Below are positions 26,601-50,708 of a stretch of 64,000 nt of DNA, one piece after another (the first letter of the stretch is position 1; each line of letters begins with the position of its first letter). The position numbers were made by a program, and so were the translations under genes. The notes beneath the pieces were generated by a model, which did no database searches, had not been told where the DNA came from, and saw nothing but the letters and a program-made list of their open reading frames with translations. The DNA comes from a virus: positions 23,970-87,969 of the IMG/VR virus record IMGVR_UViG_3300042557_001040; one strand, given 5' to 3'.

Positions 26601-29600
26601 GCATAGTCAGCATACTCTTCTCTAGACATTTTAGATAAATCTACACCTTCTGCTTTGGCAATTTTAGCTAACTCATAAGATGCACTCCAACCGAATAGTT
26701 TTTTTCTTCTTTCTATATCAGCTTTAGCATCTGTAACAACAGGAGCTACATCAGGTTTTAATCTACCTTCTTTTATGTATTCATTAAACTGTTCTTTACT
26801 CCATACTCCTTTAGACTTATTTTTTGTATTTTCAAACTGGATATCTCCTTTCTCACTAAATCCTCTAATTACATAGTTTTGTCCAGAGTCAGAGGTAAAT
26901 GTATCACCAACTTTTGGAGTTGTAGAAACAGGAGCTCCTTCTGTTGGGGTTACTGTAGGTTTTTCTGCAGTCTCATCTAATTTATCAGCAACAACTTTGG
27001 CCTCTTCTTCTGTAGCATACCCTTTGGCTACAGTGGCCCCCGTAGGACTAACCACCGTAAATGTTTCATCTTCTTTTACTACAACATGCTTTTTTTCTTC
27101 CTTATCTACATCAGCAGCTTTATAAACTTCATCAATATGATCTTTTTTAAATAATTCACTAACTTCTTTATGAGCAGAAATCATTGAATTAATTACCAAG
27201 TTCATATTATAAGGATCAGCAAGTAAATTTACAGCATCTACATATGCTTTATTATCTTTATTAAGACGAATGTAATCTATGATGTTTATAAAGTTTGCAT
27301 CTACATCTTCTTTAGATACAACAGCCTTATTCTTAGACCTTTCATTATAAAGATTTATAAGATCAGCATAGCTCTCATAAGCTCTTTTTTCAGCAGCAGG
27401 AGAATAAGACTCATCAGAATTATCAACTATATCCTGGTAAGAGCTTTCCCATTTTTTTGCTAAGGCAAGTTCTTTTTTCTTTTGTTTTAATATTTCTTTT
27501 AAATCAGGAGTGAGCGTGTCCGTAGATTCATAGTTTTTAATCTCTGCTTCAAGATTCTTTACATGATCATTAAGTGCTTCTTCACTGCCCATTTTAGTGA
27601 GCACTTCTAAACTTGAAGCACCAATATTTTTATTTTTAGAAATCTCTGTTTGTAAAGAAGCAGCCCTTATAACAGCTTGTTTTGCTTTATGAACATTAGT
27701 AGCAAGTATCTCTATAGCATCTTCTAGTGCTTTCTTTGATATCTTTGCTTGCGCATATTCTTCAGGGGTATTATATTTATATAACTCAGGAAGCACCTTA
27801 TCACCATACTTATCTTTTAAATTTTCATAAGTGGTGTAATATTCATCCATTTGATTTGCAATGTTTTCCATAAAGGATTTTACATTGCCTCTATTTTTTT
27901 CTGTAGCATCAATTCCATATGCATCTTTAAATTCCTCATCTGTCATGTTAGAACCAGCTCTTTTAATAGTGTCTCTAACAGTTTCAAACATGTTTAATTT
28001 AATAGCACTACTTACAGTTTTTGCAAAAGCAGAATCCTTTGCATTATAAAAAACATATTTATTATGATTTTTAGCTGCCTCATCCATTGTCTCAGCAGCT
28101 TTATTATTTATCTTAACATTTGCAATCCACTCTTTTTTAAATTGTGTGGGATCTGCATATAGAGAATTAACAAGAGCAATGCTTTCCTTTGCTCTTTCTT
28201 TTCTTGTTAAATAATCAGGATCTTCTTTTTTCTTTCTACTCTCTTCTATAGACTGATTAACCTTACTAATAATTTTAGTGCCAGGAGATATTAATGCACC
28301 AGTTAACGCGCCCATTAAGAATGTTCGCATACCTTCAGAGCTGGTAATAGGATTTTCTATACTGTCTATAATGCGTTGCATCTTTCCACTATGCCCCTGT
28401 TTACCATGATAAAGATCATAGTAATAGCCGCTTAAACCTTTATTTGAAGCATCCTGTATAAGTTCTTGAACACCTTCCAATCCTTCTATTCTGGTGAGCC
28501 CCTTTCCTAACATTTTAGTAGCTTCCCAACCTGCTTTTGTTTTTCCAAAATCTTGAGCAATACTTCTTACAGCACCTAATTCTCCAAAGAACCAGCTTTT
28601 TGAATATGCTTTAGTCAAATCTTTTCCTGCTACCTTACCTGTCACTTGGAATGCTTCCTCTGCAAGGGGTGCCGCTGCTTCATTAAAAATGTTTCTAGTG
28701 CGACTAAAACTTTTGAACATGTTATTAAACTGTAATCTATTCATTACAGAAATAACACCTACGTTTGTCCAAAAATTGTCATGAGAGGCATCTTCTGCCT
28801 TTTTATTTATTTTTTCAAGGTCGTCTCCATCTGGATTTTTTCCATTGGCTTCTATATATTCATTTACAAGTTTATCTCTTAATTCTTTAAATGTACTAGC
28901 CGCTTCAAATATTGATTCAGAACGTGCCATGTTAAATTCACTAAGTGCACGTTTTACCCCACCTAGAGTAGTCATTGCTAATTGTCCATACCCTGCGCCA
29001 GCTTTACCAAGCTTATAAAGATCTTGAAATCCACTATATAAAGGAACAATAGTTCTAGCAGCATTATTGAATGCATTAGTGACTCTTGCAGAACTAGTTA
29101 CAATTTCTGTAGCTTTGTTAACATCATTAACAATTTCACCTAATGTTGTAGCAGTTTTTACACCTCTTGCAATATTTAATCCTTTTAAACCTGCACCAAC
29201 TATATTTCCAAGACCTGCTGTAAGATATGTTTCTAAAGCAAATTGTGCCATGGCACCTACAGTAAATCCAGCTTGCTGAAACATATTACCAAAGAACTGA
29301 CGATTAAAATATCCATCTTTAGACTCCGCTGTATCAAATATTGCATATTTATTAAAGATGTCTTCCTGTTCTTTAGCTATATCATATCTCTCTTCAGGGG
29401 TTCCCATTAGTTTGGTAGAATCCCATGTAGACAAAGCTTGAGCCATTCTTGCCCATCCTTTCCATCCTTCAGCAAACGTGTTTACAGCAATTTCACCAAA
29501 TCCACCAAGTGCTTTTCCAATAGTATCTCCCCAAGTCATAGCTCTGCCATATCTATATTCTTGTTCAGCACCTAAACTAGGAATATATCCAAATGTTTTA

Positions 29601-33139: not shown

Positions 33140-36100
33140 TTATCTTAGAAAAGGATTGTGATAAGCATAGCCCCCATATGCATATGATAGTTGTTGATCT
33201 GCATCTGCAACAGGGATTCTTGTGTTATTTTTTGAAGGATTGTAAGGATAAGTAGTGGCATAACCAGATCTTCTTCCTATCATATTATTCAGTATTGTTT
33301 GAGCGGCTCTATGCTTTTCTTCAGGAGTTCCTTCTATATTCTGAAGAATTTGATTATAGTTGTCTATATAAGCTTTTGCATTTTCAGGAGTGCTGCCACT
33401 AAGTTCTTGTCTTTTCATGGCTTCAAAAGCTGCTCTTCCACCATACGGATTAAACGTTAAAAGACCTGTTTTAGGATTAATAAAATAATAAGGACTTTCA
33501 GTGATGTTCATATTGTACAGTTTTGCAGCATTTGTCATACCTGTACCAAGGGCTTGTGTAAGAGCAGTATCTGCCAATCTTTTTTCTCTTCTGTACTTGT
33601 CATTAATATTCCACCTATTTTCCCTATTTGTATTAACTACATTTGCATTATAAGCTGCCGCATTATTCATAATGTTAGCTAAGTTTTCTTGATACCTGTT
33701 ATATACACCAAGATTTCTTGTGTTAACTCCATTAATAATATTAGCTACATTTTCTCCAGTTTGTCCTTGTAAATAAGAAAGATTTGCAGCTAAACTTTGA
33801 CCAGGAAGAGATTCTTGCAATGCTCTTGCTGCAGTATTAACACCCTGATAGACATTTTGAACTGCTCCTTTCCAATCTTCCAAAGTAACATCTGGAACAT
33901 ATGGAGTGGCTTTTACATAGTCAAATGGTTCTTTTTTAATACCACTTCTATTAAGTAGTGCGTTTAAAGCTGATAGCTTATCTTCAGGAAGCCACCCATA
34001 GGGAGGATTCATAAAAGGAACATTTGTTTGTACAGGAGATACTTTAGGGGCTTCTTCTTTTTTATCAGAAGGTTTTTCTTCGATTTTACCAGTTCCACCA
34101 CCTGTAGGTGTAGTGCTAGGCTCATCTCCTGTATATACATATTCAGGTTCTGTTCCAGGGGTTGTTACAACTTTTCCTTTAGGATCATATAAATCCGTTG
34201 TATATGTTTTTCCATTCCAAACAAAAGTACCAAGACCTTGATTTCTAGCATTAGCAAAAGCTCTATTAAAACTTGAGCTCCCTCTGCTAGGCGCAGCACC
34301 TGCAGCAATTGTTTGAGATGTGCCAGCTACCCCTGGTTTTTCATAAAGATCTTTTATAGGAGTGGGATTGTAACCACCAGGGACACCAGATGCTCTAGGA
34401 AAAAACTTAGCTCTAATTTTTCTTTTATTGTAATCAAATTCTTTTTCAGGAGGAAACTGACTATTCTGAGTGCCTTGATATTTAGGAAGACCACCATATC
34501 TCATTTCTTCTTGTGGCATTTCTTCTTGAGACTGTTGTTGAGGTTGAGGAGATTCTTGACTCATGCCTCCTCCCATAATATTTTCAGCAACTTTGGGAAT
34601 ACCCTGAGGAAATCCTTTCATAGATTCTTGTACAACAGAAAGATAGGCAAGCTTTTCCTCATAGTTGTCTATCATTTTTTTAGCCGTGTTCTTACTTATA
34701 TTGTCAGAATAAGGATCTTGAAGAACAGCTTTATATTTATTTACATCATACTTTTTAGCTATTTCAGCTGGAGTGTAACCTTTCTTAGAAGGAGACATTC
34801 CAAACATCTTGAGAACATTAGGATCTTTAATTATCATCTTCTTTGTATCAGAATAAATAAAGGTTCCTTCTGGTACATTAAGTGGTGTGCCACCTTGAGT
34901 GTGACGTTTGCCTCCAATCTTCATGTGCTCATTCATACCATCTCCATCCATATCTCCATAAGCAGTTTCTCCTTTCTCAGCTTCTATGTTAGCTTCTTCT
35001 CTAGGAACTTCTTGTATTGTATTTGAAGCATTTTCATAAGTGTTGTCTGTCATCTTAGAGTAGGTGTTTCTTTGACCAAGGTCAAAACCATATCCAGATT
35101 GACCACCATATGCCATTTCTTGATTTGGAGTGCCAACAATTCTCACTCTACTCATAGACGGTGTTTCTTCAGAATCAGGTGTTTCAAGGATGCGTATTTT
35201 CATATCTTCATCTGTTTCTCCCCCCTCTTCAGAAGCAGGAAGGTTGTTTTTTATTCTAAAATATTTATCTTGAGCTTTCTTAAGATATCCTCCCCAAGTT
35301 ATTTCATTTCCATAATCCTCTCTTGGAATCTTATTTAGAACTCCAGTTTTACCCTTTAAGAAGTTATTTGTAAAAGTGGGATCATACCAAGCTCCAAATA
35401 TTAAAGAACCATATTTAGGAAGCAAGTCATTAACTAATGATTTAGCAACCTGTCTTTCAAAATTTGGGTCAGTATTATAAGCATTTTCAAACTCATTCCA
35501 ACTCATGGATTGTTTAAAGTGCTTATTAAATAAACCTTTACGAGTACCTTCTACAATACCCCATCTTCCCATAGCAGTGGCTCTTTGACCTTCAGGACCA
35601 ACAAGTTGGGTTCTTCCACCAGTTTTTGATTTTTCTGTAGCAGCTAATGTATCTAATACAGCATCTGCATCCATTTGATTGGCATCTAATACAGTGATTT
35701 CAGAAGGATCAATTATAGTATTTCTATTATACTTTCTTCCTTTAGGGGCAAACTTGTGAGAACTTGCTTCAGAAGATACTGGACCAGAAGAATAAGACTG
35801 AGGAACAGGTGCTTTTTGTTGAACAACAGGCACATTAAAAAAATCAGCAGGAAGAGAAATAGGTGTACTTGGTAAATAAAGATCCCCTGTTTGACGAGGA
35901 ACCTGAAGACCATCTTCTGCATAACTTATTCTAGGATGGAATTGGTTAGTCATCTGACCTTGATTCACTGTATACTGAAGATCAGGATTTTGCCAACCCT
36001 CATTTACAGTCCACATCCCCTTGTTTCTTTTTTCAACAAGTTGATTATCGGGAAGCATGTCTCTTCTATACTTTAAATCAAATTGCCTATCAACGTCTTT

Positions 36101-37141
36101 ATTATTAAAGAAATTAGAAGCAGTTTCTGCTAAATTAAGTCCTGCATTTAAAGCATAATTATATGCTCCTAACTTTTGAACAAATGTTTTATTTTTAAAA
36201 GGAGAAGTTGTGTCAAAATTTATATTTGAAATCGGTTCAGGCATTCCATAAGTCCCTGTTATAGGATTTCTAATAAAACCTTCTCCTAAATCAGTTTTTA
36301 CTTGAGGAGACGCAGGAATATTTGCTGAAGAAATCGGTTCACATTTTCCTGTAAAAGGATTTTTTTGTTGACCATCTGGACAAGTTTTTCCTAAAGATTG
36401 TGAAACACCTTGCTGAAAAGCAGAATTCATACCTTTAAAAGTAGGAGACATTTCAGTATTAAATGTGGGTTTTCCTGCTATACCAACAATACTATTTTGA
36501 TATTGTGCTTTTGGCAACCCCTTTCCTGTTATGCGCACTCTAACAGCTTCAGGTTCACCACCATATGCTTTTTGTTCAGATTTTCCTGGAGACACCCAAT
36601 CAAGAAAAGGAACAACATTATTGTATCCTGCTTCATATAATCTTTGACCTCTATTATATTGACCAAAAGGATTTAAAAAAAGTCCTGGGGTATGCAAACC
36701 AACTTTTTCTATACCTTTATTTAAAACTTTAGAAGGATAACGACCTGTTTTATCAACTGCCTGAAATACTTTTTTTCCAGCCAAATAAGGTACATCAATT
36801 AACTTAGCCCCCAAACCTTTAACACCTCCAATAACTTTTGGAGATTTTCCAATTTTTGTAATTTTTCCATAAATAGGAATTGAACCAAGAACATTCCAAG
36901 CAAGACCTAAAGTGTTTAATGCCTTATTTTTCCAACCAGGTTCATTTATTAATTTTCTAGCAGAAGAAGTTACATAAGGAAGATTTGATAAACCGGTGGG
37001 ATCAAAAAAAGAAATTAAATCATCTACATCATCTGGTTCATGCATAGCAAATTTTGTTATAGGCAAACCTAGGATAGGACCTGTGCCATAAAGTCCTTTT
37101 TGAGCTTTGGGAAGATCTTTACCTGTAATGCGTATCTTCAT
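33140..37141 (-). CDS. modular virion protein with lysozyme-like domain and xxYGG motifs
   Basis: 1333 aa. ANIEAEKGE...GGKRHTQGG...FIYSD block, LAATE...AMGRWGI lysozyme-like motif, FNRAFANAR..F.WNGKTYTT mini-domain, repeated AYGG and LPKAQ. Confidence 0.7.
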   Translation of the reverse strand: MKIRITGKDLPKAQKGLYGTGPILGLPITKFAMHEPDDVDDLISFFDPTGLSNLPYVTSSARKLINEPGWKNKALNTLGLAWNVLGSIPIYGKITKIGKSPKVIGGVKGLGAKLIDVPYLAGKKVFQAVDKTGRYPSKVLNKGIEKVGLHTPGLFLNPFGQYNRGQRLYEAGYNNVVPFLDWVSPGKSEQKAYGGEPEAVRVRITGKGLPKAQYQNSIVGIAGKPTFNTEMSPTFKGMNSAFQQGVSQSLGKTCPDGQQKNPFTGKCEPISSANIPASPQVKTDLGEGFIRNPITGTYGMPEPISNINFDTTSPFKNKTFVQKLGAYNYALNAGLNLAETASNFFNNKDVDRQFDLKYRRDMLPDNQLVEKRNKGMWTVNEGWQNPDLQYTVNQGQMTNQFHPRISYAEDGLQVPRQTGDLYLPSTPISLPADFFNVPVVQQKAPVPQSYSSGPVSSEASSHKFAPKGRKYNRNTIIDPSEITVLDANQMDADAVLDTLAATEKSKTGGRTQLVGPEGQRATAMGRWGIVEGTRKGLFNKHFKQSMSWNEFENAYNTDPNFERQVAKSLVNDLLPKYGSLIFGAWYDPTFTNNFLKGKTGVLNKIPREDYGNEITWGGYLKKAQDKYFRIKNNLPASEEGGETDEDMKIRILETPDSEETPSMSRVRIVGTPNQEMAYGGQSGYGFDLGQRNTYSKMTDNTYENASNTIQEVPREEANIEAEKGETAYGDMDGDGMNEHMKIGGKRHTQGGTPLNVPEGTFIYSDTKKMIIKDPNVLKMFGMSPSKKGYTPAEIAKKYDVNKYKAVLQDPYSDNISKNTAKKMIDNYEEKLAYLSVVQESMKGFPQGIPKVAENIMGGGMSQESPQPQQQSQEEMPQEEMRYGGLPKYQGTQNSQFPPEKEFDYNKRKIRAKFFPRASGVPGGYNPTPIKDLYEKPGVAGTSQTIAAGAAPSRGSSSFNRAFANARNQGLGTFVWNGKTYTTDLYDPKGKVVTTPGTEPEYVYTGDEPSTTPTGGGTGKIEEKPSDKKEEAPKVSPVQTNVPFMNPPYGWLPEDKLSALNALLNRSGIKKEPFDYVKATPYVPDVTLEDWKGAVQNVYQGVNTAARALQESLPGQSLAANLSYLQGQTGENVANIINGVNTRNLGVYNRYQENLANIMNNAAAYNANVVNTNRENRWNINDKYRREKRLADTALTQALGTGMTNAAKLYNMNITESPYYFINPKTGLLTFNPYGGRAAFEAMKRQELSGSTPENAKAYIDNYNQILQNIEGTPEEKHRAAQTILNNMIGRRSGYATTYPYNPSKNNTRIPVADADQQLSYAYGGYAYHNPFLR

Positions 37142-37148
37142 AAGTTTA

Positions 37149-38894
37149 TTAGATTACTTCAATTTTATAACCCATTTGCTTAAGTCTTTCCACTTCAGCT
37201 CTAGAAAGATCTCCTTCCCATCCCACTTCATAATCTTCAACTCCACCTCCTTCAGCATATCCATACTGTGACATCATGTCTTCATTACCAGCAGCCTTAA
37301 ACCTGCGCTCAGCTAACCACTGAGGCATTTGACCACCTTGCGCCATACCCATACCATACATTGCTTTATTGGGTCTATCTACAGGTTGATTAAACAGTCT
37401 TGGTATTTCAGAATGATAACCACCATATGCAAATTGACCATATTCAGGAATATATGTTCCTCCCCATTGACCACCATCATCAAACCTTAGTTTACTAAAA
37501 AGTTTTGCTGCTTTTCCTAATCCTTTAAGTTTTCCCAATTGTTGAAGAAGCTCACTTCCTTTAAAAGCTTCTTTTATTCTAGAGCCAAGGCCCAAAGCCT
37601 CTGCAGCTTCTGCAGCTTGAACAGGAATAGTAGAAGGAGCAATGGGCAGTGGTTTTCCCCAACGGGCAGCTGCCGCTCTTTGAGCATTAATAGATCTCAT
37701 AGCTGCTTTTTCTTCTTCTACAGCTTGCAAAGCTGCCCTCGCATCTCTATCAGCAGATAAAGATTGTGCAAGACGTTCTTCTCCTGCAGCTTCTTGGAGC
37801 ATTCTATTTGTTCTTACAACATTTTCAGCAGTGCCTGGTTTTGTAAAAGCCAATGCATTTGGAATCTCAGCTTGATCTAAAGCTTTTAATATATCTTTCT
37901 GACGTTTTGGTAATTTTTTATACCACTCTGAAGTAGTTTTAAGATCTTCAAGACTTTTACCCTGCACTTCTTTCAGTAACTCTTTAAAACCTTTACTGTC
38001 TAAACCCATTTTTGTTGCCATTTCCAACATCCTATTATAGTTTAAACGAGAGCTGCCAGGCATCATCATACTTTTTAATCTTGCTAATTCTTGAGGACTT
38101 GTATTTTTTAAATATCTTTTTCCTAAAGCATAAGCTGCCCCTAAACCCCCTATTCCTGTACCTGTTAACACTAAAGCAGAAGGATTTATTCCTCCTGAAG
38201 GACCTGTTTTTTTAGGGGTGGGTTTATTAGGAGAAGGTTTGGGAGTAGAAACAACATTACCACTACTGTCTATAGAAACTGTAGGAATTGAATCAGGAGA
38301 AGAAACAATAGGTGAAGGTGTCACAACAGGAGGAACAGAAACAGGGGCAACAGAAGATGAGTCTGAAGAAACAACTGTTGGGGGAATTATAGCTCCAGAT
38401 GTAGTTGAAACACTACTTTTATATTCTGATAAAAGATTTGGATTATTAGCAATACTGTTTATTAATTTTTTATTTTGTTGTGCAGTGCCTCTATAGTTAC
38501 TAATACCTGCCGCTTGTGCAAGTTTTTTTCTAAAACTATATCCTGATTGTTTTCCTTGAGCACCTAAAAAATCAACAACACTAACTCCTTCATATGGATT
38601 TATACTAAAATTAGGAGGAGGAGGTGGTGGCGCAACAGTATATGATGCTTGTGTGTAAGGAGCAGCTGCCATTTGTTGTGCGGCTGCTTGTTGATAAGGA
38701 TTAGATTGAGTGACTGGTAACTGACTTAACCAATAATCCATTGCTTCTTGCCAACTTTCATAGTCGGGGTAGTCTTGTTCTTGGGGAGCACCATAACCAC
38801 CACCATTTTGATACCAAAGTGGGCCTGAGTTTGTAGAACCTTGATAGTTGCCGCCATGTGCCATATAAGGCATGTAATCATAAAAACTGTACAT
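37149..38894 (-). CDS. modular virion protein with DUF3597-like cell-wall-binding domain
   Basis: SVVDFL..QG..SGYSFRKKLA...GISNYRGTAQQNKKLI, Pro/Ser linker, hydrophobic helix and six xxxGG motifs. Confidence 0.7.
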   Translation of the reverse strand: MYSFYDYMPYMAHGGNYQGSTNSGPLWYQNGGGYGAPQEQDYPDYESWQEAMDYWLSQLPVTQSNPYQQAAAQQMAAAPYTQASYTVAPPPPPPNFSINPYEGVSVVDFLGAQGKQSGYSFRKKLAQAAGISNYRGTAQQNKKLINSIANNPNLLSEYKSSVSTTSGAIIPPTVVSSDSSSVAPVSVPPVVTPSPIVSSPDSIPTVSIDSSGNVVSTPKPSPNKPTPKKTGPSGGINPSALVLTGTGIGGLGAAYALGKRYLKNTSPQELARLKSMMMPGSSRLNYNRMLEMATKMGLDSKGFKELLKEVQGKSLEDLKTTSEWYKKLPKRQKDILKALDQAEIPNALAFTKPGTAENVVRTNRMLQEAAGEERLAQSLSADRDARAALQAVEEEKAAMRSINAQRAAAARWGKPLPIAPSTIPVQAAEAAEALGLGSRIKEAFKGSELLQQLGKLKGLGKAAKLFSKLRFDDGGQWGGTYIPEYGQFAYGGYHSEIPRLFNQPVDRPNKAMYGMGMAQGGQMPQWLAERRFKAAGNEDMMSQYGYAEGGGVEDYEVGWEGDLSRAEVERLKQMGYKIEVI

Positions 38895-38934
38895 AAGAAT
38901 TAGTTTTATGTGCTTTTAGAGAAGCACTATTTGT

Positions 38935-38990
38935 AATATAATTTAAGCTTTTTTGTTAACATTTTAAAATTTATTATTCATTTAAACTTT
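38935..38990 (-). promoter_or_regulatory. candidate phage late promoter
   Basis: Minus strand AAAGTTTAA...TAAATTATATTA upstream of the 581-aa gene. Confidence 0.4.
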
Positions 38991-41900
38991 TAACGTTTAA
39001 CTCCTCCTTTCTTATAATAATATTGTAAGAGTGGTCCTCCTTTTTCAGGAAGTTGTGGTATGGATATATCTCCACCATTTCTTTTTTGTGGTTTAAATTT
39101 TGGGTTATTTGGATTAAAATCGTTAAAATCATTTGTGTTCCATATTCTACCATACCAGGTATCATAATAATCACTATTAGGAACTCCGGGAGCAGGATTA
39201 TTTATATTTTGATAATACCAATCTCTTCCTCTATTTAAAAATTGTCTACGAGTATTAGCAGGTAATTTATTTATTTCTGGAGAATATTGATTCCAAATTG
39301 CATCTAATTCTGGTTTTTTCTTTGCCCACTTTCCTGGCTCTTTATTCATATCTATATTAAAAGACCCTCTATTAGGAATACCCTCTTGCCCTTTAGACTT
39401 TAAATACTGATCTAACATGTAGATTCTAGGATCACGTCCAGAATTGAATATAAAATCCATTGCTTCTGCTGATTCCATTGCACTAGCATTAGGCATAATT
39501 TTTTTAACTTCTGGATATATTTTATTCATTAACATATTCATATACTTAGAATCAGCATACTCAGGAAGAGGTGCTCCACCTGGCCCTCCTCTTAGCTGTT
39601 CATAACTAAGTATTTTACCTGCTTGATGTCTTACACTATCTTGTGTAGTTAAATCCTTACCTGTTTGTGCTTTTGGTAATTTTAATGTAGATATATCTCC
39701 ACCATTATTAAATGTAGGAACACCATATCCTTTGTTGTAATAGTATCTATTAGCTTGACCACCTTCAGCAAACTTAGATATACCACCACTGTATGAATTG
39801 CTATCTCTATCTCTTCTATTCTGTCTAATTACAGCATCTAAGCTTAAAGGTTGTCTTGGGTTCACTGAACCACCATTTTTAAAATGATAGTTCAAACCTG
39901 CACTAAAAGAAGGTTGAAATTGATTTATCCCTGCAATAGGAACTCTAACATTTGTAATATTAGCTCCACCTGTAAAACCAAATCTATTGTTAAGTCTTAA
40001 ATTTCCTTGTGCACCTGCTCCTAAAATGTTTGTATAAAAATCAGGTTGCATTGCATATAGATATGGATTTATTCTGTTTTCATTTGGTTTTTTAATAATA
40101 GGGAGATTTAAAGAAACTGCATTAGAACCTCCAACTTGAAATATTTCTCCATGATTCATCTTACCAGCATAGTAATCTGCTAAAGGCCCACCATATGCTT
40201 TATTTAAAGGATATTCTGTAAACTTTGTTGCTCCAGGAAATGTATGATTACCTGTGTTTGGATTAATCACTCTTGATTCTCCCACATCAGGAACTACATA
40301 TAAAGGAATGTCTCCATATCCATGAGTAGCCATTGTATTCCCTTGTATCTCTGTTATCTTACCAGGATGGGCCCATTGTCCTCTGTTATCTTTTATTACA
40401 CCACCTTGCTTCTTTTTTTGTGCATTATAACCAGCTGATAATAAACCTGTTCCAATTCCTACGCCTGCTGCTGTTTTCCCTACTTTAGACCAATCTATTT
40501 TTCTTGGTCCTTCCACCCATTTATCAGCTTGAATTATTCCTTGTTCAGGATTAAAAAAACTAAACTTAGGTCTGTATTGTGGGATAGCGGTTTGTTGTAT
40601 ATATCCACCTAAAGGATTTCCAGGAACAGGGTTTTCATAAGTCATCTTGCCCTTAAAGAAATATTCTGGATAATTAGTAGCGTGATAAAGTTCTTCTCCA
40701 TAAGGAACATTCTGCGGTATTCTTGGATCAGTACCTGACATATGAGGATATTGATCTTCCAATAATGTAGAAAGTTTATACTGTTGCTCTGTACCTTTTC
40801 CATATCTAGGATCTATTTCAGGATATATTTCATAACTACGAGCTTCCCCTGGAGCATTGCCTTTTATAAACCAACCTCCCATATCTTGACCTTCATAAGG
40901 ATACCAAGCACCTTTACTTTTTCCAGAGTTAGTACCAGAACTTTTATAAAAGTGTTGAAACTCTCCTTTATCATTTACTAAGTTCATAATATCTCTGGGC
41001 TTACGACCTTCTTTTCCTGCTGTAAATTTATTTACTATGTGCCAGTTTTCATCTCCAGTATTTAAACTACCATATGTATTAATTTTATTTCCTTTAAATT
41101 CAATATGACTTGTTGAACCGTCTGCGTTTTTTACAACTTGAAACTTATTAGAGTATTGAGTGCCACCAGGAACAAATCTAGATTCTCCAGGTTTAGTAAA
41201 ATATTGTTTAGGATCAGTAAACATTTGTTTTACATCACCTAAAAATCCTGCTTGTTTAGGAACAACTTTATTTGCAGAAGGACTTCCAAGTGTAGGTCTA
41301 TTTAAATCTTGCCAATAATCTCTAGAATGTTTTCTAAGACCACTTGTATATTTTCCATACTCTTCTTTAGACATGTCCCTTATGATTTTGGGCTCTAATT
41401 CTTTAGGAAGTTCTTTATATGAAGCTTTTCCAAATTTCCCAACATCATTTAAATATGTTTTAACAAGATCATCTATTTTTCTTCCAGGAAATGATTCGGT
41501 TATTTTTTTAACAAAATTTGGCTCATCCTGCCAGTTAATAGGTCCTCTTGTAATAGATATGCTTGATGAAGGTTTAGGAAGAGCCGCTGATTTCATAGAA
41601 TTAACGAAAGGAACTTTTAAACCTCTAAATTCACCTAACATAGGTAACACTGAAGCAGCATTTAATCCTGCTTGTAAAAATTCTCCTTTAGCTACATTAC
41701 CAGGTATAGACACTGCAGCATTTATATATCCAAAAGGATTAATCATGTTTACAGCATGTTCGTATGGGTTAATCTCACCTCTTTCAAAATTTTCTGGAAT
41801 ATCTTGTCCTTTAAGTTTATATTTTAAAGCAGTCATAGGATTAGCTGCAATAGCCAATGCTCTAGAAGCTGTAGATTGTTTTGGACCAGCAGCTCTAATT

Positions 41901-42130
41901 TCCCCTTGCTTTTCTCTTCTAGCATTTAGTTCTTTTTGTCTATTAGCCTCAGCAACTTTTAATAGGTCCGCAGGTTTTTGTGTATAAGAATCAGAAGTTC
42001 TTTGTTGAGCACTTTTAAGACCAGCCATCTGCTCATCAAGAGATTTTCTTTGTATAGGAACTTGTCCCGCACCCTGATATTTAGGAAGCTTCTTATAATA
42101 ATATTGCTGAAGGATGGAATCTTTTCTCAT
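38990..42130 (-). CDS. modular virion protein with GG-delimited domains
   Basis: 1046 aa. GQWAHPG..TEYP domain, OMP-like beta segment, GH108-like module and about nine xxxGG motifs. Confidence 0.7.
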   Translation of the reverse strand: MRKDSILQQYYYKKLPKYQGAGQVPIQRKSLDEQMAGLKSAQQRTSDSYTQKPADLLKVAEANRQKELNARREKQGEIRAAGPKQSTASRALAIAANPMTALKYKLKGQDIPENFERGEINPYEHAVNMINPFGYINAAVSIPGNVAKGEFLQAGLNAASVLPMLGEFRGLKVPFVNSMKSAALPKPSSSISITRGPINWQDEPNFVKKITESFPGRKIDDLVKTYLNDVGKFGKASYKELPKELEPKIIRDMSKEEYGKYTSGLRKHSRDYWQDLNRPTLGSPSANKVVPKQAGFLGDVKQMFTDPKQYFTKPGESRFVPGGTQYSNKFQVVKNADGSTSHIEFKGNKINTYGSLNTGDENWHIVNKFTAGKEGRKPRDIMNLVNDKGEFQHFYKSSGTNSGKSKGAWYPYEGQDMGGWFIKGNAPGEARSYEIYPEIDPRYGKGTEQQYKLSTLLEDQYPHMSGTDPRIPQNVPYGEELYHATNYPEYFFKGKMTYENPVPGNPLGGYIQQTAIPQYRPKFSFFNPEQGIIQADKWVEGPRKIDWSKVGKTAAGVGIGTGLLSAGYNAQKKKQGGVIKDNRGQWAHPGKITEIQGNTMATHGYGDIPLYVVPDVGESRVINPNTGNHTFPGATKFTEYPLNKAYGGPLADYYAGKMNHGEIFQVGGSNAVSLNLPIIKKPNENRINPYLYAMQPDFYTNILGAGAQGNLRLNNRFGFTGGANITNVRVPIAGINQFQPSFSAGLNYHFKNGGSVNPRQPLSLDAVIRQNRRDRDSNSYSGGISKFAEGGQANRYYYNKGYGVPTFNNGGDISTLKLPKAQTGKDLTTQDSVRHQAGKILSYEQLRGGPGGAPLPEYADSKYMNMLMNKIYPEVKKIMPNASAMESAEAMDFIFNSGRDPRIYMLDQYLKSKGQEGIPNRGSFNIDMNKEPGKWAKKKPELDAIWNQYSPEINKLPANTRRQFLNRGRDWYYQNINNPAPGVPNSDYYDTWYGRIWNTNDFNDFNPNNPKFKPQKRNGGDISIPQLPEKGGPLLQYYYKKGGVKR
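39063..39706. repeat. 17-bp exact direct repeat flanking an in-frame module
   Basis: gatatatctccaccatt at 39063-39079 and 39690-39706 (encodes NGGDIS). Confidence 0.85.
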
Positions 42131-45100
42131 CTGAAGGACTGTTGTATTTTCTGATTAGAAAATTTAAATAAATACTTTATGTTTCCATTTATCTTGGCTC
42201 TTAGAAACACATGATTAACATGATGTCTAAACTTTTTACGCTCTAATGGTGACTTATCATAATTGATATAGTCAGGGTTGATATTAAACTTATATCCATT
42301 GGCTTCTGTAATAAACATTGGAATATTTGCAGGGTCTGGAAGATTTGGAGGATTAAACTCACTTCTATCTTTTGTAATGTCCCAAAACTGATTAAACCTG
42401 TATTTGTTTTCTTCTTTTGCGTAAAGAATATCTATATAGTCTGTTTTTACAGAAGGATAGTTTAAAAGAGCTAAAGGATTGTTCTTTGGTTTAATATTAA
42501 GTTGTAAAGTTCCAGATATTTGTTCTGAATTATATATTACAGCCTCATCAAAGTTTCTGTCTAATACATGAAACTTATCTCTACAGTCATTGTAAAACTT
42601 ATACGCTTCCAATACATATTCAATGCTTCTTGTTGTTGTCACTGTCTGCCCTGTAGAAGAAACAAATTCAATTTCCCAAGGATGACTCACGCCATAAAAA
42701 TTACAGTAGTCATCACACCTCACATTATGCTTCCATATAGAATCAACATTTACAGACATAAAGTGATTCTTGCTAGGAATTAAAAATGTAGGAATCCAGT
42801 CATGGAAACTAATCCATGCTTTTGATTTAGGGTCATAGCTTATTGTAAAACTTGCATCTTCAAAAGCCCGTTCATCTCCAAGATTATAATATTCGTTTTT
42901 AACATTGTCATAAAATGTATTGCTTGCTTCTTGATAAACTAAAGATATTTTAGGCTTATAATCTTTTTTTGTAATGTATATGATTTCATTTGTGTTATCA
43001 TATATCATATGAACTCCAATGCCAACAACAGAATTATCAAAGTATTTATATTCAGGAAACACTTTAAGAAGTTGAGACGGAAGATATTTAGCAAACCACC
43101 ATTTCATCCCTCCATTTGAGATTTCAATTAACCCTCCACCGCCATATTGGAAAACTTTTCCTTGGTTTTGACTCACCCAGAAAATTCCGTGGTTAGTACC
43201 AAGTTGAGCATATCTATTCTGGCAAGAACCATATTCATAATATTCATCTGCATTAACTATTGCTTGAAGCTGTTTTGCATCACTAAATAATTTACCATCA
43301 CCAATTGTTATTCTTGCTCCAGTGCCATCTAACTTAAGTTCTTCTGTACCAATAAATTGATAAGGACTTTGAGACCTTAGCATAAATAAAGAACCTGTTT
43401 TATTTAAATTTTTAACAGCGGTTATTGGTGAAGGAAAATCATAATAGTTATTTGCCAAGAAAACTCGCCAGTTATCTTTTTTAGATATATCACTTTGACT
43501 TAAGGAATAAATTATTCTACTTGGGTTATACGCATAACAAGTGCTAGCCACTGCAGGATCATAGTCTCTAGGAAGAACATTGCCCCAACTTATATTGCTG
43601 CTAAATAAGTTGTTAACGCTTAGAGATTGTTCATATTTATAATAATTGCCACTCTTAATGATATCACTTCTAAACATGATTCCCAAGTCAGTAAATCTAT
43701 ATGGGTCATAATGACGTTTTTCTGTTGCGTCTTCCCAATCTCTATAAGCAAGGTTGATTTCTGATTCTACAAAAAAGTCTCTAACGCCAGAGTTAAATAA
43801 ATAAAAGTAACCACGATCTATATAAAACCCTTTTGCTTGCTCTCCATCTAAAGATTTATATTTAGAAGCAACAGCTATAAACTCTGAATGAGATTCATTT
43901 GTGTTCACCCAATATCTAGGATAGGGTACATTTATATGTAAAGTGTAATCATATTCATAGTTGTCAACTTCATTAAACAACCAATCTGTAAAGAAGAACA
44001 TGCTGTTTTTTTCTGTAAACCTGTTAACATAAACATCCCCACCAAAGTAGACTGGAGATCTAAATTTCATATTTGCAACAGGCATTGTTTCTTCAGTACA
44101 ATTAGAAATAACTAATTGCTTAATGGAATCAATTTGACCATACTGGGAAGGCAAAGAAACTTTTAAAGCCCCGTAGTATGATGATATATTTCTTGTTACA
44201 TTTGTATTCAATGTATACCCAACATCACTCATCCTCACTCTACTATTATCAACATTAAGTGGTTTATCAAGTGTACCATCTATTTCAAAAGCTAAAAAAC
44301 TACTTCTGTTAAGATTGTTAATTTGGTAGGAAGGATTAAATGCCTGTACATGAGAACCAACATATGTAGAAGTTACTATTTTTCTTCTTCTATTACCTTC
44401 TTTATTTAATACAGATTCATCGTATAATCCATGAGAGTTATACTGAGCAGCATATTGTCTCTTTGGTATAAAACCCACTATAATGTTATATAACTGCTGT
44501 TGTTGTGCCGATAACTTTAAAGCAGACATTGCTACTGTTAATGTTATATTTGTAGCTTTAATTATATTATTTTCAACAGTTCTAGTAGTAGCTGCTGCAT
44601 TACCAAGTGTTGCTCCAGTTGTAGAATCTACTATTCCTGGAGTAGACCCAAATCCTCCTCCAAGTGTACCAGTACCAGGAAGGATTACACCATAAAAAGC
44701 ATCTGGTTTACGTTTAGTTAACAAATCTGTTGTAAGAGGAATATCACTCGTAGCTCCCAAAATAATAGAAGAATCTGCACCAAGCCCCACCGCAACAGAA
44801 TTTGCTATTACATTAAGTGAGGCAACAATTGTAGAAATAACAGTAACTTTTTTACTTGGTATTTTAAATTTAGGATGTTTGTAAGGAGTTGTAAAGTATC
44901 CTGTAGATTTACCATAAACTTCCTGATACACCTTTACCTCCACCGCATTTAAATACGGATTACTAAATGTTACATCAGGACCATGAAAAGAAAAAATATT
45001 GTCTTTATATGTTGTAAGAGGAGGACTTGTTACAGGACTTTTACCATTGTTTCCTAATTGAGCAGCTGCTGTTAAATACAAATCATTTCCCAAATCATTA

Positions 45101-46806
45101 TAAGGGTAGTTTTGGTAAAGACCCTTTACATCTGCATTCTCTGGTATATCATATTGTCTCATGTTATTTATGAGACCTTTTGATACAATAGTTTTATTTC
45201 CTTGACGAGAACCTCTTAAAATTTCATAACCAACAATAGATTCTATTGGATTGCCATTAAGATCTACTGGTGCTTTTATATTTAAAAACTGAACACCTAA
45301 AATGGTTATTGTATTATCATCTTTAGAATAAATCTTTAAAGAATCATCAACTGTTTCATCTGGAAATTTATGATGACGAATAGATTTACCACACAGCGCA
45401 TCCCAAATATCAGGCTTATTATCAGGGTATTTTTCTGTTGATTCCCAATACGCCATTTTACCCGTAGCTATAAGCTTTCCTCCATCAGGTAAATTAGATG
45501 ATGTAGATGTAAGAATACCTGCTGTATTTTCAACTTGCCATTTTTTTACATTAACCCCATCTTTTAGCTCATACGCATCATCTCCAGAAACATTTGCTAT
45601 TTCTGAAGCAAGAGGAGCTCTTCCAGGAATATGATAAGAATCAGATTTATCACCTGTATTATACACCCATCTTATAAAAAAAGAGTACACTTCATCTCTC
45701 ATGTATCCTACATTATTTCCACCTTTATGGTAATAGTCTGCAGGATATTTAGCAGCCACCCAACGCGTTTCAATTTTATTAGCTAAGGGTTGGTAGTTAA
45801 ATTTAAACTTAGTATAGGGACCTACACGCAATAAATAACTTCCTATTGGATACATTGCGTCAGACTTTTCTACAGGCTCTGTTCTAACAACAATATCGGA
45901 AATTGGAACAATTGCTTGTTCATTTGTAAACCTGTCTATATAAATGGTAGAAACATTTGTAGAGTAGAAACCTAAAAGTTTAACTGTTGTCTGTGATGCA
46001 ATATTAGCTATCAAAACCAATTCAAATTCATCAAATGTTTTATCAACATCTAAAACTCTTAGTTCAAGAGACCCCATCATGTTATCATGATTAAATATAG
46101 ATTGAACTTCTGTAAGTCCTAAATAATCTGTAACACGAACTTGATCTATAGTATATGCAATTGCAACTTGATAAGAACCATTTAAAAGACTCCCTGCACC
46201 CTTTCCTTTTTCAAGAGAAAGACAAGGTTGTTTAATTAATGGTGCAATTCTTAATGCTTCACAATTTAAAACCGATGACTTTTTTTCTACAACACAATCA
46301 TTAACAATGGTTTTAGTTGTTAAATATGGAACATCATTAATGTTTAATATTCTTGTAGGATTTAATCCATCATCCCAATAGATTAATCTTTCACAATCAT
46401 ATCTTTCGCGAGAAGTGCCCGCAATAAGATTTGTCCTCTTAAAGTTTAAGCAAGAATCATTAACAATTTTTGTGTATGTGCAATCTGATTCATCAAATAT
46501 ACCAATCTCAGAATCTATGTCATTTGTTGAAAAGATTGCCCATCTATCATCTGAAAGATGCACATATCCAATTACAGTGTAAGGAATAGTTACACAATGT
46601 AAATTAGAGGGTTCATTCCCTATAACTCCCACTTCACCAAGATGAGAATTGTTAACAGCATTGCGTGCGTGTACCCACATACCTTCCCCTTCGTAACTTG
46701 CGTTATAATCTCTATTCATTCCTTTACTAAAGGAATTTGTTACGATTGGTTCTCTACTTCCTCCTCCACTTTGAGGCGATGGGCTAGTATCTTTATCCTC
46801 TGCCAT
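42127..46806 (-). CDS. tail stabilisation/muzzle protein (crAss-like)
   Basis: 1559 aa beta-rich. Begins NSFSKGMNRD, contains IYWDDGLNPTR, FGGDVYV and WISFHDWIP. Synteny with IHF-like and ring genes. Confidence 0.8.
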   Translation of the reverse strand: MAEDKDTSPSPQSGGGSREPIVTNSFSKGMNRDYNASYEGEGMWVHARNAVNNSHLGEVGVIGNEPSNLHCVTIPYTVIGYVHLSDDRWAIFSTNDIDSEIGIFDESDCTYTKIVNDSCLNFKRTNLIAGTSRERYDCERLIYWDDGLNPTRILNINDVPYLTTKTIVNDCVVEKKSSVLNCEALRIAPLIKQPCLSLEKGKGAGSLLNGSYQVAIAYTIDQVRVTDYLGLTEVQSIFNHDNMMGSLELRVLDVDKTFDEFELVLIANIASQTTVKLLGFYSTNVSTIYIDRFTNEQAIVPISDIVVRTEPVEKSDAMYPIGSYLLRVGPYTKFKFNYQPLANKIETRWVAAKYPADYYHKGGNNVGYMRDEVYSFFIRWVYNTGDKSDSYHIPGRAPLASEIANVSGDDAYELKDGVNVKKWQVENTAGILTSTSSNLPDGGKLIATGKMAYWESTEKYPDNKPDIWDALCGKSIRHHKFPDETVDDSLKIYSKDDNTITILGVQFLNIKAPVDLNGNPIESIVGYEILRGSRQGNKTIVSKGLINNMRQYDIPENADVKGLYQNYPYNDLGNDLYLTAAAQLGNNGKSPVTSPPLTTYKDNIFSFHGPDVTFSNPYLNAVEVKVYQEVYGKSTGYFTTPYKHPKFKIPSKKVTVISTIVASLNVIANSVAVGLGADSSIILGATSDIPLTTDLLTKRKPDAFYGVILPGTGTLGGGFGSTPGIVDSTTGATLGNAAATTRTVENNIIKATNITLTVAMSALKLSAQQQQLYNIIVGFIPKRQYAAQYNSHGLYDESVLNKEGNRRRKIVTSTYVGSHVQAFNPSYQINNLNRSSFLAFEIDGTLDKPLNVDNSRVRMSDVGYTLNTNVTRNISSYYGALKVSLPSQYGQIDSIKQLVISNCTEETMPVANMKFRSPVYFGGDVYVNRFTEKNSMFFFTDWLFNEVDNYEYDYTLHINVPYPRYWVNTNESHSEFIAVASKYKSLDGEQAKGFYIDRGYFYLFNSGVRDFFVESEINLAYRDWEDATEKRHYDPYRFTDLGIMFRSDIIKSGNYYKYEQSLSVNNLFSSNISWGNVLPRDYDPAVASTCYAYNPSRIIYSLSQSDISKKDNWRVFLANNYYDFPSPITAVKNLNKTGSLFMLRSQSPYQFIGTEELKLDGTGARITIGDGKLFSDAKQLQAIVNADEYYEYGSCQNRYAQLGTNHGIFWVSQNQGKVFQYGGGGLIEISNGGMKWWFAKYLPSQLLKVFPEYKYFDNSVVGIGVHMIYDNTNEIIYITKKDYKPKISLVYQEASNTFYDNVKNEYYNLGDERAFEDASFTISYDPKSKAWISFHDWIPTFLIPSKNHFMSVNVDSIWKHNVRCDDYCNFYGVSHPWEIEFVSSTGQTVTTTRSIEYVLEAYKFYNDCRDKFHVLDRNFDEAVIYNSEQISGTLQLNIKPKNNPLALLNYPSVKTDYIDILYAKEENKYRFNQFWDITKDRSEFNPPNLPDPANIPMFITEANGYKFNINPDYINYDKSPLERKKFRHHVNHVFLRAKINGNIKYLFKFSNQKIQQSFR

Positions 46807-47165: not shown

Positions 47166-48053
47166 TTATTTAATGGGTGCAATCCATGTTGTGAACTCCT
47201 GAGCCTTGAACATGTCATAATACTTAACATATTGAGCTCTTCTGTTCATCTCCCATAGTTGTTTCATCTCTCCATAGTCTGGAGTGTTCACTATTGTCAA
47301 GGCATAGTTTCTGGCAGCTCTAAGACGTTGCTCTACAAGTTGTATTCTTTGAGAAACATCCTCACCATTCATATAAAGATTTTCAAGAATACGCTGCTTT
47401 ACAGCATACTCATAATACTCATTTATCATTGGGTGATCAAGCACCAATAGCTCTCCCTCAGAGTTTTCCAAAGCACCCTGATACGATATAAACAATTGAG
47501 CCTGAGGTACATTTGTATAAATAAAACCATTTTTAATTTGACCAGATGGTAGGGTGTCATCCAACGCATCCACTGTACCTGTGCTATTAGAGATTCTTAT
47601 CTTTTGAAACTGATCATACACTCTTACATCGTTCACTCTTTTTTCAATAACCTGAACATTAATCTTCTCTCCCCACTGACACTCAACTGTATATGTTGTT
47701 TCACAATCACAGGTTAAATCTTTACATCCACATTTAGGACAATCTGATCTTCCTAAAATGATGTTTTCAGTTTGCCTTCCCATCATTCTGGGTTGAACCA
47801 CCTCATATTTACCACACAGATAAGCATAGTTCAAAACATAAAAATCATCAGGTAATTTAGTCTTACTATGGGATAATTCTAATACTTTTTCTTTTGTACC
47901 ATGGATTCTCAATCCAAGATCATATGTAACGCGCTGGGCCACCTTAATGAGCTGTGCAGGATCAATCAGCTTTTCAGTGTTATACATTGTAAAGTCAACA
48001 GCTACATCACTTAGCAGCTGTGTAAGAGTTTTATATTTAAGTTCTGTTTTCAT
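47166..48053 (-). CDS. tail ring/adaptor protein
   Basis: 295 aa with KLPDDF and GFIYTN...LFISYQG motifs, in the crAss tail block. Confidence 0.7.
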   Translation of the reverse strand: MKTELKYKTLTQLLSDVAVDFTMYNTEKLIDPAQLIKVAQRVTYDLGLRIHGTKEKVLELSHSKTKLPDDFYVLNYAYLCGKYEVVQPRMMGRQTENIILGRSDCPKCGCKDLTCDCETTYTVECQWGEKINVQVIEKRVNDVRVYDQFQKIRISNSTGTVDALDDTLPSGQIKNGFIYTNVPQAQLFISYQGALENSEGELLVLDHPMINEYYEYAVKQRILENLYMNGEDVSQRIQLVEQRLRAARNYALTIVNTPDYGEMKQLWEMNRRAQYVKYYDMFKAQEFTTWIAPIK

Positions 48054-48064
48054 AGGAGGATGTA

Positions 48065-50587: not shown

Positions 50588-50607
50588 ATGTTATAGTATT
50601 AGTTTCA

Positions 50608-50668: not shown

Positions 50669-50708
50669 TCTTGTTATTGGAGGAACCAACAAACCTCCTT
50701 TTTATCTT

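Follow-up and report, generated by a model that had tools for sequence, protein, structure and literature searches.

Three Tagged Genes Downstream of the Muzzle Gene

We have studied three consecutive genes of an uncultured virus whose products are punctuated by a short recurrent peptide ending in Gly-Gly, which we call a tag. The genes lie on the IMG/VR contig IMGVR_UViG_3300042557_001040, an 87,969-base viral sequence that is 72% complete (CheckV). The window, that is, the whole 64,000-nucleotide stretch analyzed here, corresponds to bases 23,970-87,969 of this contig; positions below are those of the window unless another record is named, and every feature so located is on the minus strand. 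In order of transcription the three open reading frames (ORFs) encode P0003 (38990-42130), a mosaic protein of 1046 amino acids (aa) with eight listed GG tags and two LPK[AY]Q sequences; P0002 (37149-38894; 581 aa), with MAHGG and YQNGG at its N terminus and four further tags at its C terminus, as well as a peptidoglycan-binding-like stretch and a hydrophobic Gly-zipper segment; and P0001 (33140-37141; 1333 aa), which resembles cargo protein C1 of the phage crAss001 and in which four clusters of tags accompany two domains, one compact (module A) and one helical (module B). They are most likely the cargo proteins, internal to the particle and ejected from it, of a freshwater crAss-like phage.

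The assignment as cargo proteins draws on the order of the genes. Transcription passes from the tail ring proteins R2 and R1 (47166-48739; Pfam CrAss_Ring_2, 1.9e-16, and CrAss_Ring_1, 2.9e-8) through an untagged 1559-aa muzzle-like protein (42127-46806) to P0003, P0002 and P0001, and then to ORFs of 1026, 5129 and 1522 aa. The muzzle-like protein matches PHROG virion structural families, and in tblastn it is 25-28% identical to large structural proteins of a crAss-like gut phage, of the Cellulophaga phages phi17:2 and phi4:1 and of the Flavobacterium phage Fpv1. The three genes thus stand directly downstream of the ring and muzzle genes, where C1 is found in Crassvirales. The order agrees with that of a complete, syntenic relative (G001; 128,065 bases, 100% complete), which also carries the Crass_capsid family, and with that of crAss001, where muzzle gp44 is followed by the cargo proteins gp45 and gp46 and then by giant RNA-polymerase proteins (Bayfield et al., 2023; PMC10172136, cited throughout from the accessible part of its text). 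The DNA was found in lake and freshwater metagenomes, and the sequences of all three proteins are present also on a 124,942-base contig. A host among the Bacteroidota is suggested by SprB repeats in a fibre-like ORF of 1653 aa that lies outside the window.

The Tags Are Concentrated in the Probable Cargo Proteins

In P0001 the tags are KAYGG at residue 191, MAYGG at 676, MRYGG at 880 and YAYGG at 1320, together with LPKAQ at 10 and 209 and LPKYQ at 885. P0002 contains MAHGG (11), YQNGG (28), FDDGG (471), FAYGG (488), MAQGG (517) and YAEGG (546), and P0003 contains KKQGG (573), KAYGG (644), FQVGG (664), FKNGG (750), FAEGG (787), FNNGG (807), KRNGG (1016) and YKKGG (1039), with LPKYQ at 15 and LPKAQ at 818. 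A sequence-only reading of this region had named 17 such pentapeptides as well as LPKAQ and LPKYQ, and every one of them is present. The pattern [MFYK]xxGG finds three further matches (KVIGG 102, MKIGG 740 and FVPGG 319), of which MKIGG 740 falls inside a confidently folded domain and is a match to the pattern but not a seam between modules.

The frequency of the pattern was compared across 71 non-overlapping ORFs of at least 60 aa, the three cargo ORFs comprising 2,960 aa and the other 68 ORFs 25,333 aa. [MFYK]xxGG occurs 21 times in the cargo ORFs (6 + 6 + 9) and 26 times in the other 68. In 2,000 shuffles within each cargo protein that preserved its composition the mean was 5.7 and the maximum 14, so that none reached 21. 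LPK[AY]Q was found five times in the cargo ORFs and nowhere in the other 68, and a core pattern [MFYK][AR][YHQE]GG, defined after the data had been seen, gave 10 against 0. The dipeptide GG by itself is enriched just 2.9-fold (43 against 127, a count that 8 of the 2,000 shuffles reach), indicating that the signal resides in the context of the glycines and not in glycine content. The enrichment that the sequence-only reading had proposed as a check is therefore borne out, as is its impression that the flanking genes lack such clusters: the muzzle-like protein has three matches, the 1026-aa ORF none and the 5129-aa ORF four. When the whole contig was scanned in six frames, the strong forms were confined to the three cargo ORFs apart from one KVKVLG in a 36-aa antisense frame, which is a strand-like hexamer arising by chance.

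These data bear on one rival explanation, that the pattern is a functionless by-product of proteins rich in Gly, Tyr and Asn. The cargo proteins are indeed 9.5-10.5% glycine, compared with about 3-8% in most other ORFs, and the loose pattern also matches places that are not seams, such as MKIGG 740. Yet the count exceeds that of every shuffle, the motif recurs at the same positions in hundreds of relatives, and there is an 8-fold enrichment in 50 other loci (see below). We consider this explanation very improbable indeed.

P0001 Is a String of Predicted Modules Separated by Tags

P0001 begins MKIRITGKDLPKAQ, and its N-terminal leader MKIRITGKDLPKAQKG (37094-37141) also opens most homologues among those listed. 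The leader recurs within the protein: VRVRITGKGLPKAQ is repeated at residues 201-213, directly behind KAYGG, and the resulting seam KAYGG-EPEA-VRVRITGKGLPKAQ (residues 191-214; 36500-36571) marks a fused N-terminal module. Many homologues start with MKIRITGKGLPKAQYQNS, identical to this internal copy. Ahead of module A lies a composite junction, MKIRILE..RVRIVG..MAYGG (residues 647-680; 35102-35203), that is present in 77 homologues. The core of module A (700-855; 34577-35044), a C1-type compact domain, is conserved in 119 high-scoring segment pairs (HSPs) and is followed by the seam MRYGG-LPKYQG (880-890; 34472-34504). Module B (1044-1289; 33275-34012), with a helix of about 100 residues, is covered by approximately 105 HSPs. 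The protein finishes with the C-terminal tag YAYGGYAYHNPFLR (33143-33184), to which the C termini of other proteins, for example KYGGYVMNNPYLK and AYGGQQAAYGYTYNNPFLI, are related.

An AlphaFold2 model of residues 600-1333, built with 78 sequences, contains two confidently predicted domains, the predicted local distance difference test (pLDDT) exceeding 90 in both modules A and B. Every tag of the region lies in a linker of low confidence (647-680, 880-890 and 1320-1333), the junction before module A and the seam behind it having pLDDT values below 50. The boundaries of sequence similarity cluster at several places along the protein, with 10 BLAST HSPs starting at 181-200 and 99 at 621-680, and 43 ending at 881-900 and 51 at 1221-1240. 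The view that the motif sits at termini and between domains, put forward from the sequence, is thus upheld by the predicted structure.

Foldseek comparison of the model with BFVD gave matches to crAss-like proteins with E from 3e-11 to 1e-3. Among them are proteins from Cellulophaga phi4:1 and phi14:2, Flavobacterium Fpv3 and crAss002, and, at 9.8e-4 and weaker, entries named 'Cargo protein 1 compact domain-containing protein'. Among solved structures, module A gave a weak match to 7qog_M, which is crAss001 gp45 (E 2.0 over 97 columns). No match to gp45 was obtained at the level of sequence (BLASTP E of at least 0.3), the profile of the 78-sequence alignment (A1) had no match among PDB sequences, and P0001 had no tblastn match among 50,697 phage records, module A alone giving E of about 0.7-0.8. 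To judge from the predicted fold, P0001 corresponds to cargo protein C1 (gp45) of crAss001, a relative at the level of the fold. Module B had generic helical matches only (best Z 7.9).

The slot between leader and compact domain is filled differently in different proteins. In homologues of P0001 it may hold an M23 peptidase or a GH24 lysozyme module. Precomputed annotation places PF26571 on some homologues. Pfam found no family in P0001, P0002 or P0003, and the single PHROG assignment among the three is to the peptidoglycan-binding-like stretch of P0002.

The Full Motif and Its Conservation among Relatives

Lining up the sites in the contig with those of homologues revealed that the motif is larger than at first described. 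It has three linked elements: an amphipathic strand of the form hydrophobic-K-I-R-I-T-G, followed by LPK[AY]Q and/or by hydrophobic-x-aromatic-GG. Homologues of P0001 number 286 at E ≤ 1e-3, and a profile made from 78 of them reached 2,146 representatives of clusters at 50% identity, 1,467 at E ≤ 1e-30. Statistics were collected on 241 family proteins, 217 of which have the hallmark of module A. The strand occurs within the first 25 aa in 143 of the 241, exact LPKAQ within the first 35 aa in 82, and a GG tag within the last 40 aa in 104.

A GG is found 25-75 aa upstream of the module-A hallmark in all 217 proteins, at exactly 40 aa in 131 of them. Ahead of this GG stand Y (170 proteins), A (128) and M (157) or F (37). 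The strand lies within 22 residues upstream of this GG in 165 of the 217, and another tag follows 110-210 residues downstream in 185. In alignment A1 the GG behind module A is invariant (G284 and G285); ahead of the module G81 is invariant and G80 is retained in at least 90% of sequences. Copies of the tags are encoded by different, synonymous codons, indicating that selection acts on the peptide.

Two other origins were examined and rejected. A repeat or recombination signal acting at the level of DNA conflicts with the same synonymous variation. The M of MAYGG or MKIRI is not the remnant of a start codon either, since 37 of the 217 proteins have F at this position and six have L, and the strand starts with I or L at several junctions.

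The tags are not confined to joints between modules. Of 26 late-starting cluster representatives chosen by hand, 15 are stand-alone ORFs beginning MK(K)YKVRITK..MAYGG and two begin at the M of M[AK]YGG. The tag therefore belongs to the module and not to the joint, and a cut there would release nothing.

The concentration in cargo genes is general. A search of IMG/VR provided 330 related stretches, from which 78 loci were kept; tag density was measured in the 50 loci of at least 15 kb that contain a C1-like ORF. The C1 ORF and the two ORFs upstream of it contain 533 tags in 148,968 aa (3.58 per 1,000), compared with 57 in 123,766 aa (0.46 per 1,000) in all other ORFs of at least 100 aa. By position, the density per 1,000 aa is 3.0, 5.6 and 2.6 in the three cargo genes, 0.93 in the muzzle gene and 0.2 downstream. 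In G001 the tags occur in the three cargo ORFs, in a Gly-rich fibre, where they are probably due to chance, and in one Lys-rich ORF of 100 aa. A variant tag, [FY]Q.GG, is found in gp040 of Cellulophaga phi4:1. The tags are not enriched in Flavobacterium phage Fpv1, whose gene order is the same, so the code is not universal among phages that possess a muzzle.

Comparison with G001 also separates the leaders from what they precede. The muzzle proteins of the two phages are 56% identical over their full length. In the cargo genes, the two core domains of P0001 are shared with its positional counterpart and 44 residues of P0002 with its own, and P0003 shares just residues 1-24 (62.5% identity). 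Conservation of the leader alone between syntenic cargo genes indicates that this putative address is independent of the cargo, as would be predicted for a loading tag. In the same way, the leader MKIRITGKGLPKAQ is found across the C1 family, and the leader MRKDSIL..YYYKKLPK[AY]Q on proteins that have nothing else in common. Literature searches returned no published description of the motif among the papers listed, nor does the accessible text of the two closest papers contain one (PMC10172136 and PMC5512222).

Modules and Tags of P0002 and P0003

The peptidoglycan-binding-like stretch of P0002 (residues 75-157; 38424-38672) matches PHROG families phrog_2307 (4.8e-11) and phrog_5182, an endolysin (1.7e-4), over this stretch only. 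The C-terminal cluster FDDGG, FAYGG, MAQGG and YAEGG (471-550; 37245-37484) includes the invariant glycines G479, G516, G549 and G550 with neighboring residues, and the tags of P0002 are invariant in its four homologues. Beyond them, residues 551-581 (37152-37244) and the corresponding part of the homologues form a terminal strand-helix-strand unit, the last strand of which reads GYKIEVI, GYKFKITG or GYDFEII. This strand resembles the KIRITG strand that opens P0001, encoded 7 bases downstream. A prediction of the complex of P0002 455-581 with P0001 1-45, in which GYKIEVI would pair with KIRITG, scored 0.19 against a mark of 0.32 and gave no verdict.

P0003 begins ...ILQQYYYKKLPKYQG and finishes ...LLQYYYKKGGVKR. 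Its N-terminal leader MRKDSILQQYYYKKLPKYQG (42071-42130) is the same on P0005, P0006, P0014, P0015, P0017 and P0018. Its C-terminal tags KRNGGDISIPQLPEKGGPLLQYYYKKGGVKR (38993-39085) contain LLQYYYKK, a repeat of the N-terminal leader, and the same tail is present on P0006. Fifteen homologues were found, each sharing just 6-30% of P0003; six have the same leader, some of these having as little as 6-7% of the protein in common. Homologues of P0003 carry SLT, YkuD, SET, DUF5872 and DUF6782 (putative metallopeptidase) modules. When P0003 alone was used to search viral contigs for related loci, none was found.

The model of P0003 is poor overall (mean pLDDT 42.9), with one confident part at residues 576-644, where pLDDT is 69-91 by blocks of 10 residues. 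This 'GQWAHPG' beta module (40199-40405) lies between KKQGG 573-577 and KAYGG 644-648, so that tags bracket it to within three residues. Thirteen of the 15 homologues possess it, in every case with GG tags on both sides; it matches small beta folds with no clear known fold (best Z 5.7).

A 60-base island at 40359-40418, encoding QGGVIKDNRGQWAHPG, is the only part matched by otherwise unlike contigs, which come from two lake or freshwater runs and have loose ends on both sides of the match. It is the most conserved piece of the GQWAHPG module and includes its leading GG tag. In the population data generally, four lake or freshwater runs contain nearly the same sequence over this region. Where related contigs have loose ends, these are located not at tags but within conserved cores (module A and the start of the GQWAHPG module), and the five joints observed are each from a single contig and short-sided.

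With cell-wall modules in their homologues, and with the peptidoglycan-binding-like stretch and Gly-zipper of P0002, the three proteins together have the appearance of an ejectosome, which would breach the cell wall and extend across the envelope.

Alternatively, the tags might have no reader at all. On this explanation the Gly-Gly is a flexible hinge with a hydrophobic cap, insulating one fold from the next and providing a safe place for recombination when modules are exchanged. The extent of the mosaicism, with 6-30% shared among P0003 homologues and M23 and GH24 exchanged in those of P0001, is what this would lead one to expect, and the tags are predicted to be disordered. HSP endpoints are also modestly enriched within 15 residues of tags, at 27% of all endpoints in P0001 where 16% would be expected and at 45% in P0003 where 25% would be expected. 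A mere hinge, however, would need neither an invariant GG with fixed flanks (M-A-Y before and LPKYQ after), kept in families that have diverged, nor terminal leaders of 14-24 residues. The synonymous codon variation means that identity of the DNA has not been maintained for recombination, and tags are also retained at free termini, which have no need of a hinge. We regard hinges without a reader as a quite unlikely account of the tags.

Are the Tags Cut?

The sequence-only reading had described the three products as putative processed cargo polyproteins, with the motif as either a protease site or a packaging tag. The half of this proposal that concerns packaging is supported indirectly, given the position of the cargo genes and a motif that accompanies unrelated modules. 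The other half, that of processed polyproteins, is not supported, for want of a protease family and in view of the AYGGPL class of tags and of the uncut gp45 model, each described below. If the tags were cleavage sites, a protease of the phage or its host would cut at or near the Gly-Gly during head maturation or after ejection, and the leaders would be targeting peptides destined for removal.

Several features would suit such a role. The consensus, with a hydrophobic residue at -3 and then Gly-Gly, has the shape of a cleavage site, and the motif recalls those of adenain and of T4 gp21. As would be expected of a processed virion polyprotein, it is shared by several predicted virion proteins at their domain boundaries; it is found at termini as well, and leaders and tails extend a short distance past the GG. 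The Lys-rich micro-protein of G001 has three M-K-x-GG sites. Some P0003 homologues have HExxH modules, one of which scores as DUF6782 (putative metallopeptidase) with E 7e-5, below the cut-off.

The cognate maturation protease that such a polyprotein would require was not found by Pfam-A scanning, a method that would miss novel proteases. In 58 ORFs or ORF pieces of the contig no maturation protease family was detected, the one match of peptidase type being an M15 endolysin-like domain; 28% of the genome lies outside the contig. Nor was any detected in 80 of the 121 ORFs of G001, where a CHAP match fell below its cut-off; the other 41 ORFs are short ORFs, replication genes and two giant ORFs. 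Peptidase_S78, the HK97-type prohead protease, was absent from all five near-complete relatives. P0001, P0002 and P0003 themselves contain no HExxH.

The sequences around the tags also weigh against cleavage. In 10 of 274 distinct tag contexts the residue immediately after GG, at what would be P1', is proline; this is fewer than the 17.7 expected. These contexts form a recurrent class, AYGGPL, that is present in crAss001 too. At the very start of stand-alone ORFs, a cut at the tag would remove just 5-20 residues.

Indirect evidence comes from crAss001 gp45. Its tags are IFDTGG at 20, FSAYGGPLEF at 209, AFAEGGG at 263, KAFGGS at 332, NAFGGWL at 427 and MFAYGGD at 562. Cryo-electron microscopy resolved two segments, residues 214-245, located on the tail barrel, and residues 425-552, located on the portal wing (PMC10172136). 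Both lie between tags, and the second is modeled unbroken through GG 427/428, 434/435 and 447/448, so that in the published model the chain is continuous across the tag AFGG-WL. The word stems 'cleav' and 'proteoly' do not occur in the accessible text of the paper, and the mass spectrometry reported there was performed on one excised band and thus carries no information on size (PMC10172136). A gel study of crAss001 from 2018 does not name gp45, and its text and supplements give no band for it; none of six tryptic masses of gp45 was found among the masses listed in its matrix-assisted laser desorption/ionization peak lists. Because most tags lie in unmodelled regions cleavage keeps some probability; taken together, we find it an unlikely explanation, though one of substance.

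The Lys-rich ORF of G001 (L093:13752-14054, minus strand) is an observation in its own right. It encodes 100 aa, very rich in Lys, with the sequences YMKKGG, KMKKGG and KMKMGG, and recalls basic core proteins that condense DNA. It is positioned at the beginning of the structural operon, immediately beyond the capsid region if the record is taken as circular. A homologue is present in one of the four other near-complete relatives (L094, G004:C1:123731-123997) and none in our 72%-complete contig.

A Proposed Uncut Address, Dock and Hinge

We favor the reading in which the tags are uncut and serve as address, dock and hinge, and place the chance that it is correct at about even. Each cargo protein would be a string of independently exchangeable modules, every one edged by the peptide code of amphipathic strand, LPK[AY]Q and/or hydrophobic-x-aromatic-Gly-Gly. 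The tags would be disordered in the free protein. In the particle they might bind repeated sites in the interior, such as the portal wing and tail barrel, so that the module between them would be loaded whatever its nature. The Gly-Gly hinge could then allow the modules to be stored apart, and to be threaded singly through portal and tail at ejection.

A number of points weigh against this reading. The binding partner of the tags is putative, and the models, being of monomers, say only that the tags stand outside the folds. The one tag seen uncut in crAss001 has N at -3 in place of M, F, Y or K, and all the canonical tags of gp45 are in stretches that are not modeled. The pieces of gp45 on the tail barrel and the portal could equally be separate products of cleavage. 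Neither the mass spectrometry without sizes (in its accessible description) nor the 2018 gel, in which gp45 is not named, decides the matter, and in the accessible text the continuous chain of gp45 is an inference of the authors (PMC10172136). Our contig is 72% complete, and novel or host proteases are invisible to searches by family. The consensus resembles the adenain site (M/I/L)XGG-X. Moreover, the Lys-rich protein of G001 with its YMKKGG, KMKKGG and KMKMGG recalls the adenovirus core proteins, which are cut at such sites, and the N-terminal leader of 14-24 residues recalls the capsid targeting sequence of T4, which is removed.

The idea of uncut addresses may be taken further, tentatively and with some doubt on our part. 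The tags might constitute a general, portable loading code, whereby any bracketed module is recruited to fixed sites in the interior, stored ready to unfold and injected in a set order, the phage being re-armed by swapping cassettes. Bolder still, an unrecognised protease specific for Gly-Gly might mature both the cargo and the Lys-rich, DNA-associated micro-protein, in the manner of adenovirus.

The 2023 structure of crAss001 raised the open question of how several megadaltons of protein are loaded and injected. A peptide code marking every cargo module, present also in crAss001 gp45, would give an experimental handle on both processes. Were the tags addresses, they would explain the free swapping of cargo and might offer a means of loading chosen proteins into phage particles; were they cut, crassviruses would possess an unrecognised maturation protease. 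Either the loading code or the Gly-Gly protease, if confirmed, would have no described counterpart among the tailed phages of Bacteroidota.

Other Genes of the Neighborhood

The 5129-aa ORF (14612-30001; 5424 aa in G001) is placed where crAss001 has its virion RNA-polymerase proteins. It had no Pfam match and none to PDB sequences, and a scan of the giant ORFs for the RNA-polymerase motif DxD[GAST]D found no instance; we therefore call it RNA-polymerase-like by position alone. It contains the single HExxH of the virion block, HEAFH at residue 2340. A zincin protease with a conserved active site is rejected here, as the sequence is HEAFE in G001, with Glu in place of the second His, and there is no sequence match in Pfam or PDB. 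In Cellulophaga phi4:1, gp041 (L005), which follows the muzzle homologue, has two HExxH sequences (HEFTHAM and HELNHAM); its annotation records it as virion-associated on the basis of proteomics.

The tail and structural block includes, between the ring genes and an ORF of 1286 aa, a pair of genes (49388-52418) encoding a metallophosphoesterase or SbcD-like protein (PHROG 704, 1.8e-54) and a 569-aa glycosyltransferase (Glyco_transf_7C, GT2); G001 has glycosyltransferases in the same position. A 163-aa ORF at 63034-63525 has relatives that are 61-70% identical in three metagenome contigs. Two of these were scanned. One (L007) is siphovirus-like, with tail tube and tape-measure families, and the other (L008) has fibre and structural families only. 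Since L007 is clearly a different kind of phage, the 163-aa ORF is probably a mobile accessory gene.

Genes for portal, capsid and terminase are not on our 72%-complete contig. In G001 the corresponding region is at 3209-11292, with Crass_capsid and P22_portal-like matches. Adjoining its capsid gene G001 encodes a beta-carbonic-anhydrase-like LCIB_C_CA protein (L087:285-1223; 9.3e-40), and elsewhere a 567-aa protein that ends in a type IX secretion sorting domain, Por_Secre_tail (L089:5945-7648).

Comparison with Known Systems

The closest parallel is with crAss001 C1 (gp45; Bayfield et al., 2023; PMC10172136; PDB 7QOG and related entries). In both phages the gene lies just behind that of the muzzle, the predicted fold of P0001 600-1333 matches the 'Cargo protein 1 compact domain' proteins of crAss-like phages, and gp45 bears hydrophobic-x-aromatic-GG tags and opens with a basic leader of similar kind, which GGQS follows. 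The differences are that there is no match at the level of sequence and the structural match to 7qog_M is weak (E 2.0), that three ORFs here seem to divide the functions of C1 among them, with many more tags, and that the KIRITG and LPKAQ elements are not found in clear form in crAss001. The crAss001 structure paper, in its accessible text, makes no mention of tags (PMC10172136).

Polyvalent proteins are large mosaic proteins delivered with the DNA, and their release by autoproteolysis of an MPTase has been proposed (Iyer et al., 2017; PMC5512222, in its accessible part). The homologues of P0001 and P0003 share with them the shuffling of several unrelated effector domains across relatives, being mosaics with SLT, YkuD, M23, GH24, SET and putative metallopeptidase modules. 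In contrast, our own three proteins have no Pfam domain, and a conserved junction or leader peptide is not described for polyvalent proteins in the accessible text, from which the word 'linker' is absent (PMC5512222).

The ejection or internal core proteins of podoviruses, T7 gp14-16 and P22 gp7, gp16 and gp20, are discussed in the accessible text of the crAss001 paper (PMC10172136). Packed in the head and ejected before the DNA, they are thought to build a channel across the envelope and to open the cell wall, and it is P0002 that we would liken to them, although no match of sequence or fold was obtained. We know of no such protein that carries a repeated, shared peptide code.

Adenain cuts the precursor proteins of adenovirus at (M/I/L)XGG-X. 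The resemblance extends from the shape of the consensus to the presence of the motif in several proteins predicted to be internal to the virion, to short terminal peptides past the GG and, in a relative, to a Lys-rich micro-protein. The host and the viral realm are unrelated, however, P4 is here often Tyr, Phe or Lys, Pro may occupy P1', and none of the scanned ORFs showed a cysteine protease domain of clan CE.

The capsid targeting sequence on the internal proteins of T4 is exclusively N-terminal and is removed by the prohead protease gp21. Unlike it, the tags described here are also C-terminal and internal, and neither S77 nor any other prohead protease family was found. What the two have in common is a short conserved leader, borne by otherwise unrelated proteins that are (here by prediction) internal to the head and injected, as would be expected of an address tag of the T4 kind.

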